From the sequence record MK962754.1: a stretch of 64,000 nucleotides of DNA; one strand, given 5' to 3'. This DNA is from Shigella phage JK36. The notes under the pieces were generated by a model, which worked only from the letters and a program-made list of their open reading frames with translations, was not told the origin of the DNA and did no database searches. Numbering within the stretch: position 1 is the stretch's first letter; every line of letters starts with the position of its first letter. Below are positions 10,020 to 64,000 of the stretch, piece by piece. The translations under genes were made by a program, and so were the position numbers.

Positions 10020-10258
10020 TGGACGATTTAATTCAAGCTATTAAATCAAACGACCTCGTTGCTACTCGAAAGTTTTTTGAAAGTGCAATGGCAGAAAAAA
10101 CGGTTCGTTTGATTGAAGCACGCAAAGCAGAAATCGCTTCTCAATTTTTGATTGAAGGCGAAGAACCTGAAGAAGAAGAAAAGAAAGCTAAAGCTTCGGA
10201 AGACGACGCTGATGAAGGCGATGACGACGAAGACGAAGATGATGAGGACGATGAATAA
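10019..10258 (+). CDS. 67: prohead core protein gp67 (acidic C-terminus)
   Basis: 79-aa ORF ending in a poly-Asp/Glu tail; between 20 and 68 as in T4. Confidence 0.8.
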
Positions 10259-11357: not shown

Positions 11358-12170
11358 ATGATCAAAGAACAACTTTTGAAAGAAGCTCAGAACATCGAGA
11401 CTTCAGTTGCTCTTAATAGTGTTTTCGAATCAGTAGAACTGTCTCCGGACGTTAAAGCTAATTTCAGCACTGTATTCGAAGCCACCGTTAAGCAGGAAGC
11501 AGTCAAACTTGCTGAATCTCATATCAAAGCCATCGCCGAAAAGGCCGAAGAAGAAGTTGAAAAGGCTAAAGAAGATGCTGAAGAGAAAGCTGATAAAAAA
11601 TTGGCTGAACAAGCTTCTAAATTCCTAGACCATCTTGCAAAAGAATGGCTCGCAGAAAACCAAATCGCAGTTGATAAAGGCATTAAAGCTGATTTGTTCG
11701 AATCCATGCTTGGTGGTCTGAAAGAACTGTTTGTTGAACATAACGTTGTTGTTCCAGAAGAATCTGTAGATGTTGTAGCAGAAATGGAAGAAGAGCTGGC
11801 CGAACATAAAGAAGAAACCGCTCGTTTGTTCGAAGAAGTTACCAAACGTGATGCATATATCAATTACGTTCAGCGTGAAACCGCTATTAATGAAAGCGTA
11901 AAAGACCTGACTGAATCTCAGAAAGAAAAAGTTATTGGCCTGGTTGAAGGTATGGATTATTCTGACGCATTTGGTACTAAGTTAACTGCTATTGTAGAAA
12001 TGGTTAAAGGTTCTACTAAAGAAGAAGCCGCTATTACCGAAAGTATAAATACAGTTGACAATGACGCTGCCGGTCTTAATTTTGTTGCCGAAGCAGTTGA
12101 CACTACCACAACTCAGGTAGAACAGAATTCTAATGTAAGTTTATATGCGAAAGTCGCATCTCGTTTCTAA
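11358..12170 (+). CDS. 22: prohead scaffolding core protein gp22
   Basis: 270-aa Glu/Lys-rich coiled-coil-like ORF directly before the major capsid gene. Confidence 0.85.
   Translation: MIKEQLLKEAQNIETSVALNSVFESVELSPDVKANFSTVFEATVKQEAVKLAESHIKAIAEKAEEEVEKAKEDAEEKADKKLAEQASKFLDHLAKEWLAENQIAVDKGIKADLFESMLGGLKELFVEHNVVVPEESVDVVAEMEEELAEHKEETARLFEEVTKRDAYINYVQRETAINESVKDLTESQKEKVIGLVEGMDYSDAFGTKLTAIVEMVKGSTKEEAAITESINTVDNDAAGLNFVAEAVDTTTTQVEQNSNVSLYAKVASRF
12044..12051 (+). promoter_or_regulatory. candidate late promoter box TATAAATA inside the 3' part of gene 22 (possible gene 23 promoter)
   Basis: Exact TATAAATA 137 nt upstream of the gene 23 ATG; assignment is inference. Confidence 0.35.
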
Positions 12171-12577
12171 TTTAAAGGTTAACACAAATGACTACTATCA
12201 AAACTAAAGCTCAGCTCGTAGACAAATGGAAAGAACTGCTGGAAGGTGAAGGCCTGCCGGAAATCGCTAATAGCAAGCAGGCTATTATCGCTAAAATCTT
12301 CGAAAACCAGGAAAAAGATTTCGAAGTATCCCCTGAATATAAAGACGAGAAAATCGCTCAGGCATTTGGTTCTTTCTTGACCGAAGCTGAAATTGGTGGT
12401 GACCATGGTTATAATGCTCAGAACATCGCAGCGGGTCAAACCTCTGGTGCAGTAACCCAAATTGGGCCGGCAGTTATGGGTATGGTTCGTCGTGCTATTC
12501 CTAATCTGATCGCTTTTGATATTTGTGGTGTTCAGCCTATGAACAGCCCGACCGGTCAGGTATTTGCTCTCCGTGCA

Positions 12578-13422
12578 GTATATGGTAAAGACCCTATCGC
12601 TGCTGGCGCTAAAGAAGCTTTCCATCCGATGTATGCTCCAGATGCGATGTTCTCTGGTCAGGGTGCTGCTAAGAAATTCCCAGCTCTGGCTGCTGACACT
12701 ACTACTGTTGTAGGTGATATCTATACTCACTTCTTCCAAGAAACTGGTACTGTATATCTGCAAGCTTCTGCTGTCGTAACACTTGATTCTGGTGCAACTG
12801 ATGCAGCTAAATTAGATGCAGAAGTTAAGAAACAAATGGAAGCTGGTGCACTGGTAGAAATCGCTGAAGGTATGGCTACTTCTATCGCTGAACTCCAGGA
12901 AGGTTTCAACGGTTCTACCGATAACCCATGGAATGAAATGGGCTTCCGTATCGATAAACAAGTTATCGAAGCTAAATCTCGCCAGCTGAAAGCTGCTTAC
13001 TCTATCGAATTAGCACAAGACCTCCGTGCAGTACACGGTATGGATGCTGATGCTGAATTGAGCGGTATTCTGGCTACAGAAATTATGCTAGAAATCAACC
13101 GTGAAGTTGTTGATTGGATTAACTACTCTGCACAGGTTGGTAAATCTGGTATGACCCTGACTCCGGGTTCTAAAGCTGGTGTATTTGACTTCCAGGACCC
13201 GATTGATATCCGTGGTGCTCGTTGGGCCGGTGAAAGCTTTAAATCTCTGTTGTTCCAGATTCATAAAGAAGCAGTTGAAATTGCTCGTCAAACCGGTCGC
13301 GGTGAAGGTAACTTCATTATCGCTTCCCGTAACGTAGTTAACGTACTGGCTTCAGTTGATACTGGTATTTCTTACGCTGCACAGGGTCTGGCTTCTGGTT
13401 TTAATACCGACACTACTAAGTC
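12578..13422 (+). repeat. tandem duplication copy 1 (845 bp) within gene 23
   Basis: Aligns to 13423..14267 at offset 845; left flank differs at 12577 (a) vs 13422 (c); by eye the only mismatch is 13262 c vs 14107 g. Confidence 0.9.
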
Positions 13423-14267
13423 GTATATGGTAAAGACCCTATCGCTGCTGGCGCTAAAGAAGCTTTCCATCCGATGTATGCTCCAGATGCGATGTTCTCT
13501 GGTCAGGGTGCTGCTAAGAAATTCCCAGCTCTGGCTGCTGACACTACTACTGTTGTAGGTGATATCTATACTCACTTCTTCCAAGAAACTGGTACTGTAT
13601 ATCTGCAAGCTTCTGCTGTCGTAACACTTGATTCTGGTGCAACTGATGCAGCTAAATTAGATGCAGAAGTTAAGAAACAAATGGAAGCTGGTGCACTGGT
13701 AGAAATCGCTGAAGGTATGGCTACTTCTATCGCTGAACTCCAGGAAGGTTTCAACGGTTCTACCGATAACCCATGGAATGAAATGGGCTTCCGTATCGAT
13801 AAACAAGTTATCGAAGCTAAATCTCGCCAGCTGAAAGCTGCTTACTCTATCGAATTAGCACAAGACCTCCGTGCAGTACACGGTATGGATGCTGATGCTG
13901 AATTGAGCGGTATTCTGGCTACAGAAATTATGCTAGAAATCAACCGTGAAGTTGTTGATTGGATTAACTACTCTGCACAGGTTGGTAAATCTGGTATGAC
14001 CCTGACTCCGGGTTCTAAAGCTGGTGTATTTGACTTCCAGGACCCGATTGATATCCGTGGTGCTCGTTGGGCCGGTGAAAGCTTTAAATCTCTGTTGTTC
14101 CAGATTGATAAAGAAGCAGTTGAAATTGCTCGTCAAACCGGTCGCGGTGAAGGTAACTTCATTATCGCTTCCCGTAACGTAGTTAACGTACTGGCTTCAG
14201 TTGATACTGGTATTTCTTACGCTGCACAGGGTCTGGCTTCTGGTTTTAATACCGACACTACTAAGTC
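13423..14267 (+). repeat. tandem duplication copy 2 (845 bp) within gene 23
   Basis: Starts immediately after copy 1 (junction 13422/13423); right flank diverges at 14268. Confidence 0.9.
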
Positions 14268-14625
14268 TGTATTTGCCGGTGTACTTGGTGGTAAATACCG
14301 CGTATACATCGACCAGTATGCTAAACAGGATTACTTCACCGTTGGTTACAAAGGCGCTAACGAAATGGATGCAGGTATTTACTATGCTCCTTACGTTGCA
14401 CTTACCCCGCTGCGTGGTTCCGATCCTAAGAACTTCCAGCCGGTAATGGGCTTTAAAACTCGTTACGGTATCGGTGTTAACCCGTTTGCTGAAAGTTCCC
14501 TGCAGGCTCCAGGTGCTCGCATCCAGTCCGGTATGCCATCTATCCTGAACAGCCTTGGTAAGAACGCTTACTTCCGCCGTGTATATGTAAAAGGCATCTA
14601 ATCTTAATTGATTAAATCTTATTTT

Positions 14626-14649
14626 GGGAGACTTCGGTCTCCCATTTTT
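14626..14649 (+). terminator. rho-independent terminator after gene 23 (GGGAGAC-TTCG-GTCTCCC plus T-run)
   Basis: 7-bp GC-rich stem with UUCG loop followed by ATTTTT, just after the gene 23 stop. Confidence 0.75.
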
Positions 14650-14653
14650 GGTT

Positions 14654-14923
14654 TTATTTCTGTGCAATTTCGATGTAAGTTTTCAAAATATTTTGCCAAT
14701 TAGGCATACCTTCTTGGACATATGCCGGAGAACCGTCTTTGTTTTTGAATGATGCAAGTTTATCAGTGGCCCAATAACCTTTAGCTCGAGCTTCAGAATC
14801 AACTTTCATCCATACTTTGTTGAAGGCATTACCATTAACTTTTGCACCATATTTTTCTACTAACTTAACTGCTTCAGCTTCCAGAACTTTTAAAGTATCT
14901 CGTAAGAAACGTGCTTTAGTCAT
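14654..14923 (-). CDS. hypothetical small early protein (89 aa), antisense to the surrounding late genes
   Basis: ATG start with GAGGAG RBS about 8 nt upstream; early-type promoter at 14954..14983; ORF ends just before the shared terminator hairpin. Confidence 0.55.
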   Translation of the reverse strand: MTKARFLRDTLKVLEAEAVKLVEKYGAKVNGNAFNKVWMKVDSEARAKGYWATDKLASFKNKDGSPAYVQEGMPNWQNILKTYIEIAQK

Positions 14924-18000: not shown

Positions 18001-19131
18001 TTATGGATATGTATAGATGATACCAGTTTCCAAAGCAGTTTTATGGATGATGTATCCATTACGTGATTCTTGAACATCAACTTCCGGATAGTCTTTCATC
18101 ATCTTCTGAAGAGTGTAACGATGCAGGTAGTATTTACTATCTGGATCTTCAGTTTTCCAATCTTTACCTTCTTCAGTCATTTTTTGGATTTCATCCATAA
18201 CCCACCATCCGCACCAGATGTAAGCTGAAGTACGATGTGGAAGAGGATGAACATAAGGTAATTCACCTTCTGGTTCTGGAGCAACTTTATCGGTTACTTG
18301 AACTTGACCTTCTGCTGTAATAGTTTTGCTATCATAATCAGTAGCAGTAACAGTTGCAGTAACTTCAATAGTTTGACTTCCAATAGATGAGGTATCAACG
18401 GTATATACATTAGTTGACCCTTCTACAGGAGAAGAATCTTTCTTCCATGAATACTCAATTTGCGCTTCTTCTGGAGCATCAGTGACATTAACGGTAAATG
18501 TAGCCGAAGCATCTTGCTGAACGTTAATAGAAGGAGGAGTCAATGTAACCTGTGGATTCATTGTCTTCTTATTAACCGTTAATGATACTTCATTCGAAGT
18601 AACTTCCTTTGCATCATAATCTGTCGCGGTTACTTGGGCTACACATTTAATTCTTTTTACTCCACTTGCAGTTGGAGTATAGCTAAATGTAGAGTTAGTT
18701 TCTCCACCAACCTGTGAATCATCTACATACCACTGATACGTAGCAGATGCGCCTGATGGCTGCGAAGCCAAAGCAGCGGTAAATTCAACAGCTGTTCCAA
18801 TCACTCCAGCCGCAGGACTAGCAGGAGTTACGGCTAAGGTAGTCGTCTGTGTCTTATTTTGAACTGTGATAGTTGTAGTAGCTTCTGCTGTTTCAGCGTC
18901 AGTATCAGGAATAGTATTTGTTGCAACAACTTTAATTGTTTTTGTTCCGGCAGGTCCTTTTAACACATAATCAAAAGTTTCTGCTGATCCTTCTTGGGGA
19001 GCATCGTCTACACTCCATGCATAGGTAATAGTTCCACCTTCAGTTTGACCACTGGGTGCAGCAGTAAACTGCTTAGTCTCATCTATAACTCCAGTAGGTG
19101 TTTTAGGAGTTATATCAACTGTAAAAGCCAT
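18001..19131 (-). CDS. hoc: highly immunogenic outer capsid protein Hoc (Ig-like domain repeats)
   Basis: 376-aa ORF with three repeated Ig-like segments and conserved C-terminal capsid-binding region; T4 position. Confidence 0.9.
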   Translation of the reverse strand: MAFTVDITPKTPTGVIDETKQFTAAPSGQTEGGTITYAWSVDDAPQEGSAETFDYVLKGPAGTKTIKVVATNTIPDTDAETAEATTTITVQNKTQTTTLAVTPASPAAGVIGTAVEFTAALASQPSGASATYQWYVDDSQVGGETNSTFSYTPTASGVKRIKCVAQVTATDYDAKEVTSNEVSLTVNKKTMNPQVTLTPPSINVQQDASATFTVNVTDAPEEAQIEYSWKKDSSPVEGSTNVYTVDTSSIGSQTIEVTATVTATDYDSKTITAEGQVQVTDKVAPEPEGELPYVHPLPHRTSAYIWCGWWVMDEIQKMTEEGKDWKTEDPDSKYYLHRYTLQKMMKDYPEVDVQESRNGYIIHKTALETGIIYTYP

Positions 19132-39272: not shown

Positions 39273-39854
39273 TTATTCACCACAAAAGTTTCGGATTTGT
39301 TCCCAATTCAGAGAACGAAGATTATTACGAGAGTACTGAATTACTTCAATACCGGCTTGTTTTAGAATGTCTGCCCAATTTTCAGGAGATCTGTCATATA
39401 ATTCTGCGTATACAACCTTTTTAATACCTGACTGTGTAATAGCTTTAGTGCAATCAGGACACGGAGAAAGCGTCGTATATAACGTAGCACCTTCAATAGA
39501 ATTACCTTTGCGAGCAGCAAACAAAATGGCATTTAATTCAGCATGGATTTCGTTATTAGCAGACCATGCACTATGAGCGGCCCGATGTTCTTTAGCCAAA
39601 ACAAAATTATCCACCCGTCCAAATGCTGTAGTGCCTTCTTTATGCCCAGCAACGATGACCGGGCTTGGTTTATTCTTCAACCAACCGTTTTCGGATGCAT
39701 GTTCGCAACAGTTTGTACCACCTGAAGGAGAGCCATTATAACCTGTAGAAATAATGCGTCCATCTTTTTCAATGACGGCGCCAACTTTCCATGAACAACA
39801 TTTTGATTCTTGAGAAATCAGATAAGCAATCTGAAGATATGTGCTAGCTTTCAT
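39273..39854 (-). CDS. cd: dCMP deaminase
   Basis: 193-aa ORF with zinc-binding deaminase motifs HAELNA and PCPDC. Confidence 0.9.
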   Translation of the reverse strand: MKASTYLQIAYLISQESKCCSWKVGAVIEKDGRIISTGYNGSPSGGTNCCEHASENGWLKNKPSPVIVAGHKEGTTAFGRVDNFVLAKEHRAAHSAWSANNEIHAELNAILFAARKGNSIEGATLYTTLSPCPDCTKAITQSGIKKVVYAELYDRSPENWADILKQAGIEVIQYSRNNLRSLNWEQIRNFCGE

Positions 39855-40090
39855 TATAGTGTTCCGTATACACGAGTTGCTTCAACTAAACCGTCACTGC
39901 CTAATTTAAGGCTAGTAATCTGGTCACCATCTTTAGGATTAACAATTATGAGAAAAGAACGTGGAGATTCTTGAATAACACGTAATGTTGCATCTTGGAA
40001 ACGTTCAGACACTTTATTGATAAGTGCTTGAGCAAATTCTTTTACTTTAATCTGAAATTCGTGCACTGTAATTGGGTTTTCACTTAGCAT
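39854..40090 (-). CDS. hypothetical protein (78 aa)
   Basis: ATG at 40090 with early-type promoter at 40117..40146. Confidence 0.55.
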   Translation of the reverse strand: MLSENPITVHEFQIKVKEFAQALINKVSERFQDATLRVIQESPRSFLIIVNPKDGDQITSLKLGSDGLVEATRVYGTL

Positions 40091-49129: not shown

Positions 49130-50815
<1,686 letters not shown>

Positions 50816-50817
50816 AA

Positions 50818-51066
50818 TTATTTCCTCAGATTTTTCTTAACAACTTTCCAATCGGCTTTGAACATTTCAACATCAGAGTGGCAAATCCAGAATCCTGCAC
50901 TTTCACCATCTTCGTAGAGTGGACATCCATCACATTCTTCGTTCCAACCCATTTCGCGTAAAGCTTCTTCAGCTTGTTCAAGGAGTTCAGCATCTTTACC
51001 AACGATGTTGAAGTACCATTTACCTCTAACTTCAGAATCTTTGATGCTCTGACGTTGCAATCTCAT
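50818..51066 (-). CDS. hypothetical protein (82 aa)
   Basis: ORF-track start 51129 reads through a promoter-like region; ATG at 51066 (MRLQRQ...) has AAGGAG RBS. Confidence 0.55.
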   Translation of the reverse strand: MRLQRQSIKDSEVRGKWYFNIVGKDAELLEQAEEALREMGWNEECDGCPLYEDGESAGFWICHSDVEMFKADWKVVKKNLRK

Positions 51067-51128
51067 TTTATTCTCCTTCACTTTTGATTTGATAGGGCTA
51101 CTATAACATAACCCTATCTGATTGTACA

Positions 51129-51521
51129 CTACTTTTTAAAAGTTTTTTGCAAAAGTTCGATGATTTCGTCGACGTTGGTTTCATCTACGATACAATGGAT
51201 TTTTGTTACACCTAAAGCTATACCTTCGTTAGTAGGTTGAGGCTTTACTATATCTACCTCAGTAAAGTATTTGAACTCGTCAGGATAAATCTCAAAATAA
51301 GTTTCAATTTCACCACCGGCAGAACATACAGTACCATCTTCCATAGTTACACTTAATACGTTTGACGTATCGCTATCATAATCAGGTTCCATTCCGTTTA
51401 CAACAAAACTAGGCCCGTGGAGTTCAATCAATTTTAACATCTTAGCGTTATTGTGTGGTGCTTCTTGAACAAAGTCATCTTTAAATAAAGGGTTAATGAT
51501 ATAAGATTTTCCGATTTCCAT
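51129..51521 (-). CDS. hypothetical protein (130 aa)
   Basis: ORF with early-type promoter at 51551..51579. Confidence 0.55.
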   Translation of the reverse strand: MEIGKSYIINPLFKDDFVQEAPHNNAKMLKLIELHGPSFVVNGMEPDYDSDTSNVLSVTMEDGTVCSAGGEIETYFEIYPDEFKYFTEVDIVKPQPTNEGIALGVTKIHCIVDETNVDEIIELLQKTFKK

Positions 51522-60667: not shown

Positions 60668-63600
60668 ATGGCTACTTTAAAACAAATACAATTTAAAAGA
60701 AGCAAAACCGCAGGTGCACGTCCTGCTGCTTCAGTATTAGCCGAAGGTGAATTGGCTATAAACTTAAAAGATAGAACTCTTTTTACTAAAGATGATTCAG
60801 GAAATATCATCGATTTAAGCATTTCCGCTGGCGGTAATATCAGTGGAAATATCACTCAAACTGGTGATTATACACAGACTGGAAAATTTAATTTAATTGG
60901 CCCACAGATTATAGCAAGTGGTGGATATATTGAGTTTAATTATCGTACTACTGGAAGTGGGGCTTGGTCCGGTCAACACACTGCAAAAGCTCCAATTTTT
61001 GTAGATTTAAGCTCAGCTACTTCCACATCTGAATATAATCCTATAATTAAACAGCGCTTTAAAGATGGAACTTTTTCATTAGGTACTTTAGTTTCTGAAG
61101 GTTCGTTAAAGATTCATTATATTGATGAAACTGGTCAATCTAAATATTGGACATTTGCGCGCTCAGGTAATTTTCAAGTTGATTCTGGTAATTTATTAGT
61201 ATCTGGTGGGTATTTAGTCGCTCAGAGTAATATTGAAACAAGAACAGGTTCTTTGATTGGTCCATCTGTTGTAACTAAAAATATTTCATTTGATACGAAA
61301 GCGTTTGGACAATACGATTCGCAGTCATTAGTTCAATATGTTTATCCTGGAACTGGTGAAACAAACGGAATTAATTACCTTCGTAAATTCCGTGCAAAAT
61401 CTGGTGGTACGATTTATCATGAATTAGCTTCTGCACAAACCGGAAAAAGCGATGAACTGTCTTGGTGGACCGGTAATACAGCCGTTAATAAACAAATGGG
61501 CCTTCGCAATGATGGGTCTTTAGTGTTGCGACGCTCACTCGCAATTGGTACAATTACAACAGATGAAAACATTAATAATTACGGCTCCACTGGAGCAATG
61601 GGTGAATGCTATATAGTCATTGGAGATGCCGCAACTGGTGTATCATATAAAAGATCTGGTGTATATGATTTAGTTGCTAATGGTCTTTCTATCGCGTCTA
61701 TTACTCCTGACAGTTTCCGTAGTACTCGTAAAGCATTATTTGGACGTTCAGAAGACCAAGGCGGAACATGGAATATGCCTGGAACGAACGCTGCGCTTTT
61801 ATCAGTTCAAACACAAGCTGATGGAAACTCTGCCGGTGATGGTCAAACCCACATTGGATATAATTCTGGCGGTAAAATGAATCATTATTTTCGTGGTACT
61901 GGTCAGATGAATATCAATACCCAACAAGGTATGGAAATTAATCCAGGACTGTTGAAACTAACAACCGGTACAAACAATGTAATGTTTTATGCTGATGGCG
62001 GTATTACATCCACTAAGCAGCTTTCAATATATAATGGTGTATATTTAGCAGCTAATAATTCTACTGCTGGGCTAACATTCGCTCCAACTACTACAGTTGA
62101 TGGCACTAAGCAAATTTTGTGGGAAGGCGGTACTCGTCCTGGTCAGAATAAAAGCTATGTAACTGTTAAAGCGTGGGGTAATTCATTTAACGCATCTGGC
62201 GATCGTAATCGTGAAACAGTTTTTGAAGTAGCTGACGGACAAGGTTATTATTTTTATTCCCAACGCGTAGCCCCAAGCGGCTCAGAAACTACTGGTCCTG
62301 TTGTAACCCAGTTCAATGGACAAGTTAATGCTAGAGGAAGTATTATTACTGACGGAAGTTTTAAAGTTAATGGATTAAGCACTTTAGTCGGTAATGTTAC
62401 CATGTCTAACGGTTTGTTTGTCCAAGGTGGTTCTTCTATTACTGGACAAGTAAAAATTGGTGGAACAGCTGATGCATTAAGAATTTGGAATGCCGAATAT
62501 GGTGCCATTTTCCGCCGTTCAGAAGCATCATTACATATTATCCCGACTCCTAAAGATGCCGGTGAAAGTGGTGGAATAAGTAATCTCCGCCCGTTAAGTA
62601 TTAGTCTTAATAATGGTATGGTACAAATGCGCCATTCCGTTACATTAGGTGATGATGGTGCAGGCGGTAATATGGTGACGGTTGATAATGATTCTAAAGT
62701 TATGGTAATGACGACTAATAGCCGTATTAGTCCTAACTTCCGTATGCAAATTGGACAGTCGTCTTATATTGATGTGGAATGTACTGATGCTGTGAGACCT
62801 GCTGGAGCCGGTTCTTTTGCTTCACAGAATAACGAAAACGTTCGCGCTCCGTTCTATATGAATATTGATAGAACAGATACAAGCACTTATGTTCCTATTG
62901 TGAAACAAAGATACGTTCAAAATAATAGTTGCTATTCTATTGGTACTTTAATTAATGGTGGTAACTTTAGAGTTCATTATCATGAAGGCGGTGACGGCGT
63001 TTCTACTGGTGCTATTATAAAGGATCTTGGATGGGAATTTAATAAAAACGGTGATTTTTATTCTCCTGGTAAATTAGGCGCTGGAAATATTAGAATAGGT
63101 ACTGATGGTAATATTACTGGCGGAACTGGTAACTTTGCTAACTTGAACACAACTATCGAATCATTAAAAACCGATATTGTTTCAAGTTATCCTATTGGAG
63201 CTCCTATTCCATGGCCTACAGATACTCCTCCTAATGGTTACGCTATTATGGAAGGACAGACTTTTGATAAGTCTGCATACCCAAAATTGGCTATAGCTTA
63301 CCCATCTGGAGTAATTCCTGATATGCGCGGGCAAACTATCAAAGGTAAACCAAGCGGTCGTGCTGTATTAAGCGCAGAAGCCGATGGTGTTAAGGCTCAT
63401 AGCCATAGTGCATCGGCTTCAAGTACTGACTTGGGTACTAAAACTACGTCGAGTTTTGATTATGGTACTAAGACGACAAGTAGCTTTGACTATGGCACTA
63501 AGACTAGCAATACCACAGGTAACCACTCTCATACTGTAAGCGGTACTACGAGTTCTGCTGGTGCACACCAACATGCGCGCTCAGGTCCTCAGATACAAGC

Positions 63601-63943
63601 CGGCATACCCAATAACATATTCTATGACGGATATAATAGTGTAGGTGCAAACGCCAACGCTAAATTCACTGGAACCGTGAACGGTGCTACTGCAGGGTCG
63701 AATATAGCCAAAACTTCTTCAGACGGTGCTCATACCCATACTTGGTCTGGTACTACAAGCACTACAGGTAACCATGCTCACACAGTAGGTATTGGTGCTC
63801 ATACCCATACTGTAGGTATCGGTGCCCACTCTCATTCGGTAGCGATTGGTTCCCATGGACATACAATAACTGTAAATGCCACAGGAAATACAGAAAACAC
63901 AGTTAAAAACGTTGCTTTTAACTATATCGTTCGTTTAGCATAA
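60668..63943 (+). CDS. 37: long tail fibre distal subunit gp37 (receptor-binding tip)
   Basis: 1091-aa ORF; C-terminal region with repeated G-x-H-x-H motifs and T4-type end ...[11 protein letters not shown]. Confidence 0.92.
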
Positions 63944-63948
63944 GGAGA

Positions 63949-63962
63949 GGGGCTTCGGCCCC
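63949..63962 (+). other. hairpin GGGGC-TTCG-GCCCC between genes 37 and 38
   Basis: 5-bp GC stem with TTCG loop; no clear T-run, so more likely an RNA structure than a terminator. Confidence 0.35.
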
Positions 63963-63970
63963 TTCTAAAT

Positions 63971-64000
63971 ATGAAAATATATCATTATTATTTTGACACT
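63971..64000 (+). CDS. 38: gp38 tail-fibre assembly chaperone, first 10 codons only (3' end outside window)
   Basis: ATG at 63971 with open frame to window end; MKIYHYYFDT matches my memory of the T4 gp38 N-terminus. Confidence 0.6.
   Translation, partial: MKIYHYYFDT

Follow-up and report, generated by a model that had tools for sequence, protein, structure and literature searches.

The major capsid gene of Shigella phage JK36 (MK962754.1), gene 23, is interrupted in the deposited sequence by a long direct repeat whose two copies differ at one base, and that base decides between two amino acids at the same position of the protein. The locus therefore raises two linked questions: whether the repeat belongs to the phage or to the assembly of its genome, and which of the two residues is the true one. 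The analysis covered a window of 64,000 nucleotides of this record, read on one strand, and all positions given below are positions in that window. The phage is T4-like and belongs to the genus Mosigvirus (RB69-like). Over the first 25 kb of the window, identity to Escherichia phage APCEc01 is 99.4%, and collinearity with the APCEc01 genome, at 99.4-99.5% identity, extends from position 1 to 60850. In those relatives whose records begin at the conventional T4 origin, position 1 of the window maps to ~94.9-95.8 kb; this lies close to 96,001, a weak hint of the same rotation in the source record, and this point was not used as evidence.

A tandem repeat within gene 23

Comparison of gene 23 with itself, base by base at an offset of 845 positions, showed two head-to-tail copies with no spacer between them that agree at 844 of 845 positions, identity being unbroken from 12578 to 13261 and again from 13263 to 13422 (Table 1). 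The sole mismatch is C13262 in copy 1 against G14107 in copy 2. Both bases occupy the first codon position in the gp23 frame and correspond to residue 359 of the de-duplicated protein of 522 amino acids, which is read as His from copy 1 and as Asp from copy 2. The original prediction had claimed exactly this, namely two copies separated by a single C/G difference that exchanges His for Asp in the capsid protein, and had set a base-by-base alignment beforehand as the test that could refute it; in that alignment the copies do differ at the site, and no further differences had been missed. A repeat search of the 64-kb window found no other large repeat.

Table 1. Features of the gene 23 region, in window coordinates.
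Feature	Position	Strand	Description	Basis
Gene 23 ORF as written, 456 aa	12188..13558	+	Residues 1-412 native, followed by 44 out-of-frame residues; stop at 13556-13558	ORF list, translation
Duplication copy 1	12578..13422	+	Gene-23 nt 391-1235, codons 131-412; contains the aberrant C13262	Identity runs, repeat search, blastn breakpoint against APCEc01
CAT codon, His359, copy 1	13262..13264	+	C13262, 161 nt from the copy 1 end	
Novel joint	13403..13445	+	Break at 13422/13423, ...ACTAAGTC/GTATATGG...	Flank comparison
Duplication copy 2	13423..14267	+	Contains the consensus G14107	Identity runs, blastn against APCEc01
Second gp23 fragment, 375 aa	13474..14601	+	Starts at native Met148; residues 148-522	ORF list
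GAT codon, Asp359 (= T4 Asp358), copy 2	14107..14109	+	G14107, base 685 of copy 2	
Terminator-like stem-loop and T run	14625..14644	+	Just 3' of the gene 23 stop, marking the native gene end	Terminator scan

The length of the repeat is decisive for the gene in which it lies. Since 845 equals 3 x 281 + 2, the reading frame shifts at the joint between the copies, and no complete gp23 is encoded by the sequence as written; accordingly, a listing of open reading frames in 12188-14601 contained no full-length major capsid ORF on either strand. Besides the ORF that begins at the native start, the gp23 frame contains only the downstream fragment, which is missing the first 147 residues and with them the segment that is cleaved off and serves in prohead assembly. 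Neither of the two fragment proteins had an exact match in a protein look-up. Deletion of either copy restores an ORF of 522 amino acids, and joining 12188-12577 to 13423-14601, the version that carries Asp359, yields a protein that is letter-for-letter identical to one found on 75 public Mosigvirus contigs (P0121). Gene order here is gp22-gp23-gp24, as in relatives, and the single intact ORF of ~520 amino acids between gp22 and gp24, absent from the sequence as written, is present once one copy is removed.

The repeat was not found in related phages. When a 2601-nt query (12100-14700) was compared with 1040 related phage records, the best 40 of these covered it in 1756 nt, indicating that the segment is present there in single copy, with no duplication; the gp23 region had no match in E. 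coli genome and plasmid collections. Relative to APCEc01, the gp23 region differs at three sites only, 12271, 12696 and 13262, and the strain-specific difference at 12696 recurs at 13541 in copy 2, which indicates that both copies derive from one genome and not from two strains. The remaining indels relative to APCEc01, as we placed them on its annotation, are mostly in-frame or intergenic, with two single-base indels at gene ends (~17718 and ~40828), and apart from the 845-nt duplication, its one gross anomaly, the assembly is otherwise clean.

The joint itself is blunt. The left boundary of the repeat reads ...GTGCA/GTATATGG, the joint ...AAGTC/GTATATGG and the right boundary ...AAGTC/TGTATTTG, so that comparison of the flanks in register gave 0 nt of microhomology at 13422/13423. 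Slippage and illegitimate recombination usually leave short homology at a junction, and a blunt joint is the pattern expected when the ends of a sequence are pasted together. A 34-mer spanning the joint had no match in viral, genome and metagenome contig collections, a result of little weight given that a control 38-mer carrying the G allele was likewise unmatched in the viral collection (viral_contigs).

Asp or His at residue 359

Once de-duplicated, the protein aligns over its whole length with the major capsid protein gp23 of T4 (PF07068; PDB 6uzc, 7vs5, 5vf3 and 8gmo), including the stretch ...LLFQIDKEAVEIARQTGRGEGNF...; a phmmer search of PDB sequences matched residues 3-522 to residues 2-521 of T4 gp23 (E = 0, 1104.8 bits), and PF07068 was present in all 120 listed homologues. 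The protein has 522 amino acids here, in the RB69-like Mosigvirus lineage, compared with 521 in T4. This homology predicts that the product is the essential shell protein, and a phage cannot propagate without its shell protein. Set against T4 gp23, the gene as deposited is split by the 845-nt repeat and the accompanying frameshift, and its copy 1 has His at a position occupied by Asp. The aligned T4 residue is Asp358, within ...LLFQIDKEAVEIARQ... (PDB chains 6uzc, 7vs5 and 5vf3), so the statement in the original prediction that T4 has Asp, offered there as uncertain, was accurate, and it marks the His of copy 1, not the Asp, as the aberrant allele.

The comparison with close relatives, for which the original prediction had called, agrees. 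Across the best 120 homologue clusters (69-98% identity), the column of residue 359 contains Asp in 119 and Asn in one, with no His, and it lies within an invariant Q-I-D-K-E motif. At the nucleotide level, a 61-mer centred on the site occurs exactly in its G version in 133 phage records, while its C version occurs in none of the 189 records that match. The full-length His protein had no match among ~15 billion proteins, compared with 75 contigs for the Asp protein. Judged from these alignments, Asp is the true residue at position 359 of gp23 and the His in copy 1 is aberrant.

Constraint on the position is looser at greater distance. In a set of 150 more distant representatives, at 35-67% identity, the same column contains Glu in 85, Asn in 19, Asp in 10, Gln in nine and His in one, and the paralogue gp24 has Val at the corresponding position. 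This spread of residues suggests a preference for acidic or amide side chains at the position, with His physically possible, and the occurrence of His in one of the 150 leaves room for a real variant. A near-invariant Asp in close relatives, together with a C allele unseen in informative public data, favours either an error or a variant that is rare and deleterious. A 38-mer with the C allele was unmatched in viral_contigs and in genome and metagenome contig collections, but the corresponding G-allele 38-mer was also unmatched in viral_contigs despite the 133 records that contain the 61-mer exactly, and negatives from the contig collections thus carry little or no weight. The viral_contigs collection seems to be without close Mosigvirus relatives, which would make its negatives uninformative for these phages.

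An AlphaFold model of a 98% identical homologue (P0002), built with 47 aligned homologues, had a mean pLDDT of 43.9 and a pTM of 0.27, too poor to place residue 359; it hints that the residue may lie within a helix spanning 344-369, and no structural claim is drawn from it. No role for Asp358 of T4 gp23 was found in the literature, and the residue goes unmentioned in a study of T4 head expansion (PMC9546572).

Origin of the duplication and of the discordant base

T4-type phages package DNA by the headful mechanism and have circularly permuted genomes, the assemblies of which close on themselves. A circularly permuted genome could thus have yielded a contig with overlapping ends, with an overlap of 845 nt that by chance fell inside gene 23. 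Such a linear contig would have started at 13423 and ended at 13422, its ends being joined without trimming of the overlap, whether in rotating the sequence to a conventional start or in treating it as circular. The true gene 23 would then consist of 12188-12577 and 13423-14601, encoding a gp23 of 522 amino acids with Asp359. C13262 would lie 161 nt, about one read length, from the 3' end of this contig, where a poorly supported consensus could have been miscalled, and the correct G14107 would lie 685 nt into the other contig end. It could be that this single mismatch itself blocked an exact-match check for overlapping ends, so that they were left untrimmed. As for the cause of a miscall, one may speculate about a minus-strand cytosine modification or a motif-associated Illumina error.

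That the duplication is an untrimmed assembly overlap is almost certain, judging by its consequences; a biological origin is very unlikely. This assessment draws on the frameshift that leaves no intact gp23, the single copy in relatives, the blunt joint, the strain-specific difference shared by both copies and the otherwise clean assembly. The original prediction had left the interpretation open between an artefact of circularisation, marked by either a read error at a contig end or real heterogeneity in gp23, and a biological duplication whose copies had since diverged: the frameshift, the single copy in relatives and the blunt joint bear out the former, and the latter did not stand. One consideration counts against an untrimmed overlap, in that de Bruijn assemblers work with k-mer overlaps shorter than 845 nt, so that an overlap-layout or long-read assembler, or joining by hand, must be assumed. 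The combined account, in which an untrimmed end overlap was accompanied by a consensus miscall at C13262, is the one we consider probable, although by no means assured, as both the history of the assembly and the status of the base as an error are read back from the finished sequence.

Circularisation artefacts, internalised repeats and frameshift assembly errors have been described as common faults in deposited phage genomes (Turner et al., 2021; PMC8785237). The locus resembles the circularisation and untrimmed-overlap artefacts discussed there in being a near-perfect internal repeat that shifts the frame of a gene and is absent from collinear relatives. It differs from them in that the cases illustrated by Turner et al. 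(2021) are true terminal repeats that became internalised in phages with fixed ends, whereas here an arbitrary coding stretch is repeated and its copies differ at one base. The 845-nt repeat does not itself have the features of a fixed-end direct terminal repeat, lying wholly within gene 23 and being present in single copy in relatives.

The explanation that competes most closely accepts the same assembly artefact and departs only over the base. Here the C/G difference would be real, a minority D359H allele of gp23 in the lysate, with the two contig ends called from different reads. Phage lysates are populations and contig ends are called independently, and the range of residues tolerated at this column in distant gp23 proteins, together with the Val of gp24, implies that His need not be lethal. 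The substitution would, however, be a non-synonymous transversion in the first codon position, affecting a residue for which 119 of the 120 clusters (at least 69% identity) have Asp, and the C allele has no counterpart in the 189 matching phage records, nor the His protein among the ~15 billion searched; for a variant at such a site to win the consensus would be unusual. A genuine allele is on this evidence unlikely, if still well ahead of the readings that follow. Should it be real, it would be of minor interest as a case of capsid-gene polymorphism within a lysate.

That two very close Mosigvirus strains in one sample were assembled into a chimera, with one copy from each, is improbable. Related phages differ by ~0.2-1% in gene 23, a range that would accommodate one difference in 845 nt, but the difference from APCEc01 at 12696/13541 is common to both copies, C13262 is a singleton found in no other record, and the rest of the window is free of mosaic breaks.

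Least probable of all is a genuine tandem duplication within gene 23, present in the phage itself or in a large subpopulation of defective genomes, with a single mutation having arisen between the copies since it formed. T4-type phages do undergo tandem duplication, and homologous recombination between the copies could rebuild a wild-type gene, allowing transient persistence beside the wild type. The frameshift nonetheless leaves no complete major capsid gene and would be lethal on its own, and a duplication quickly lost by recombination and outcompeted should not form the consensus; it is absent in the best 40 of the 1040 relatives, its joint shows no short homology, and its sole divergence would be a non-conservative change at a near-invariant residue. 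The known classical duplications of the T4 rII region are kilobases long, unstable, and selected for restored or retained gene function. The repeat described here is head-to-tail like those, but it destroys an essential gene, offers no selective rationale and has no equivalent in relatives. The variant in which a sizeable fraction of the population carries a real duplication, one copy of it D359H, maintained by recombinational resolution or by complementation from wild type, is equally improbable; if true, it would capture, at one moment in a T4-type lysate, a defective capsid-gene duplication in the course of resolving itself.

With an untrimmed overlap as the preferred reading, the locus is a matter of data quality and not of biology. 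The record as written would lead to the annotation of two broken major-capsid fragments, inflate the genome length by 845 nt and put a false His into gp23 at a position of near-invariant Asp. Comparative and phylogenetic studies that use gp23, a standard marker for T4-like phages, could be misled. The remedy would be to delete one copy and keep the G, and hence Asp.

Other repeats and differences among relatives

Gene 23 of another Mosigvirus-like phage, Escherichia phage AV112 (OR352942.1; P0001), which is 97-98.5% identical to the window, also contains a tandem repeat. Its gp23 has 540 amino acids (locus L003, 8748-10370), and the stretch GATDAAKLDAEVKKQMEA occurs in it twice, at residues ~202-237. 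Unlike the 845-nt repeat, that of AV112 is short (18 amino acids, 54 nt), in frame and located in a variable part of the protein, and it does not interrupt the ORF. It could therefore be real, as an expansion of a surface domain, or else be another assembly slip. Two near-identical gp23 sequences from ENA metagenome assemblies have in-frame deletions, of 16 residues in one (P0005, 506 aa) and 32 in the other (P0006, 490 aa), located around ...GSTDNPWNEMGFRIDKQVIEAKS..., a highly conserved stretch; they probably reflect misassembly of metagenome data rather than viable variants.

Several other differences from relatives were observed elsewhere in the window. At ~39848-39857, ~1.1 kb of APCEc01 is missing between collinear flanks; by coordinate conversion the missing segment corresponds to approximately 50258-51353 of APCEc01 and comprises most of APCEc01_082, which encodes a hypothetical protein, and the gap has the appearance of an optional gene that some genomes carry and others lack. 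From 60850 to 63098 there was no megablast match to APCEc01, and 63098-64000 shows ~85% identity; by synteny with APCEc01_050-051, 60850-64000 corresponds to the distal long-tail-fibre region, the usual hypervariable segment associated with host range, and short imperfect tandem repeats are found in this region at 63427-63506 and 63785-63842. A segment of ~280 nt at 18291-18571, shared with APCEc01, is missing from AV112. It falls at the gene annotated in APCEc01 as large outer capsid protein (Hoc), the product of which has 283 amino acids in AV112 compared with ~376 in APCEc01 (from CDS coordinates), suggesting that relatives differ in the length of Hoc. Short imperfect repeats with a 21-nt period occur at 10202-10254, upstream of the prohead protease gene, and at 11538-11582, inside the 270-aa ORF (11358-12170) of the prohead core protein gp22; both are low-complexity coding repeats of a kind that is ordinary for such proteins.
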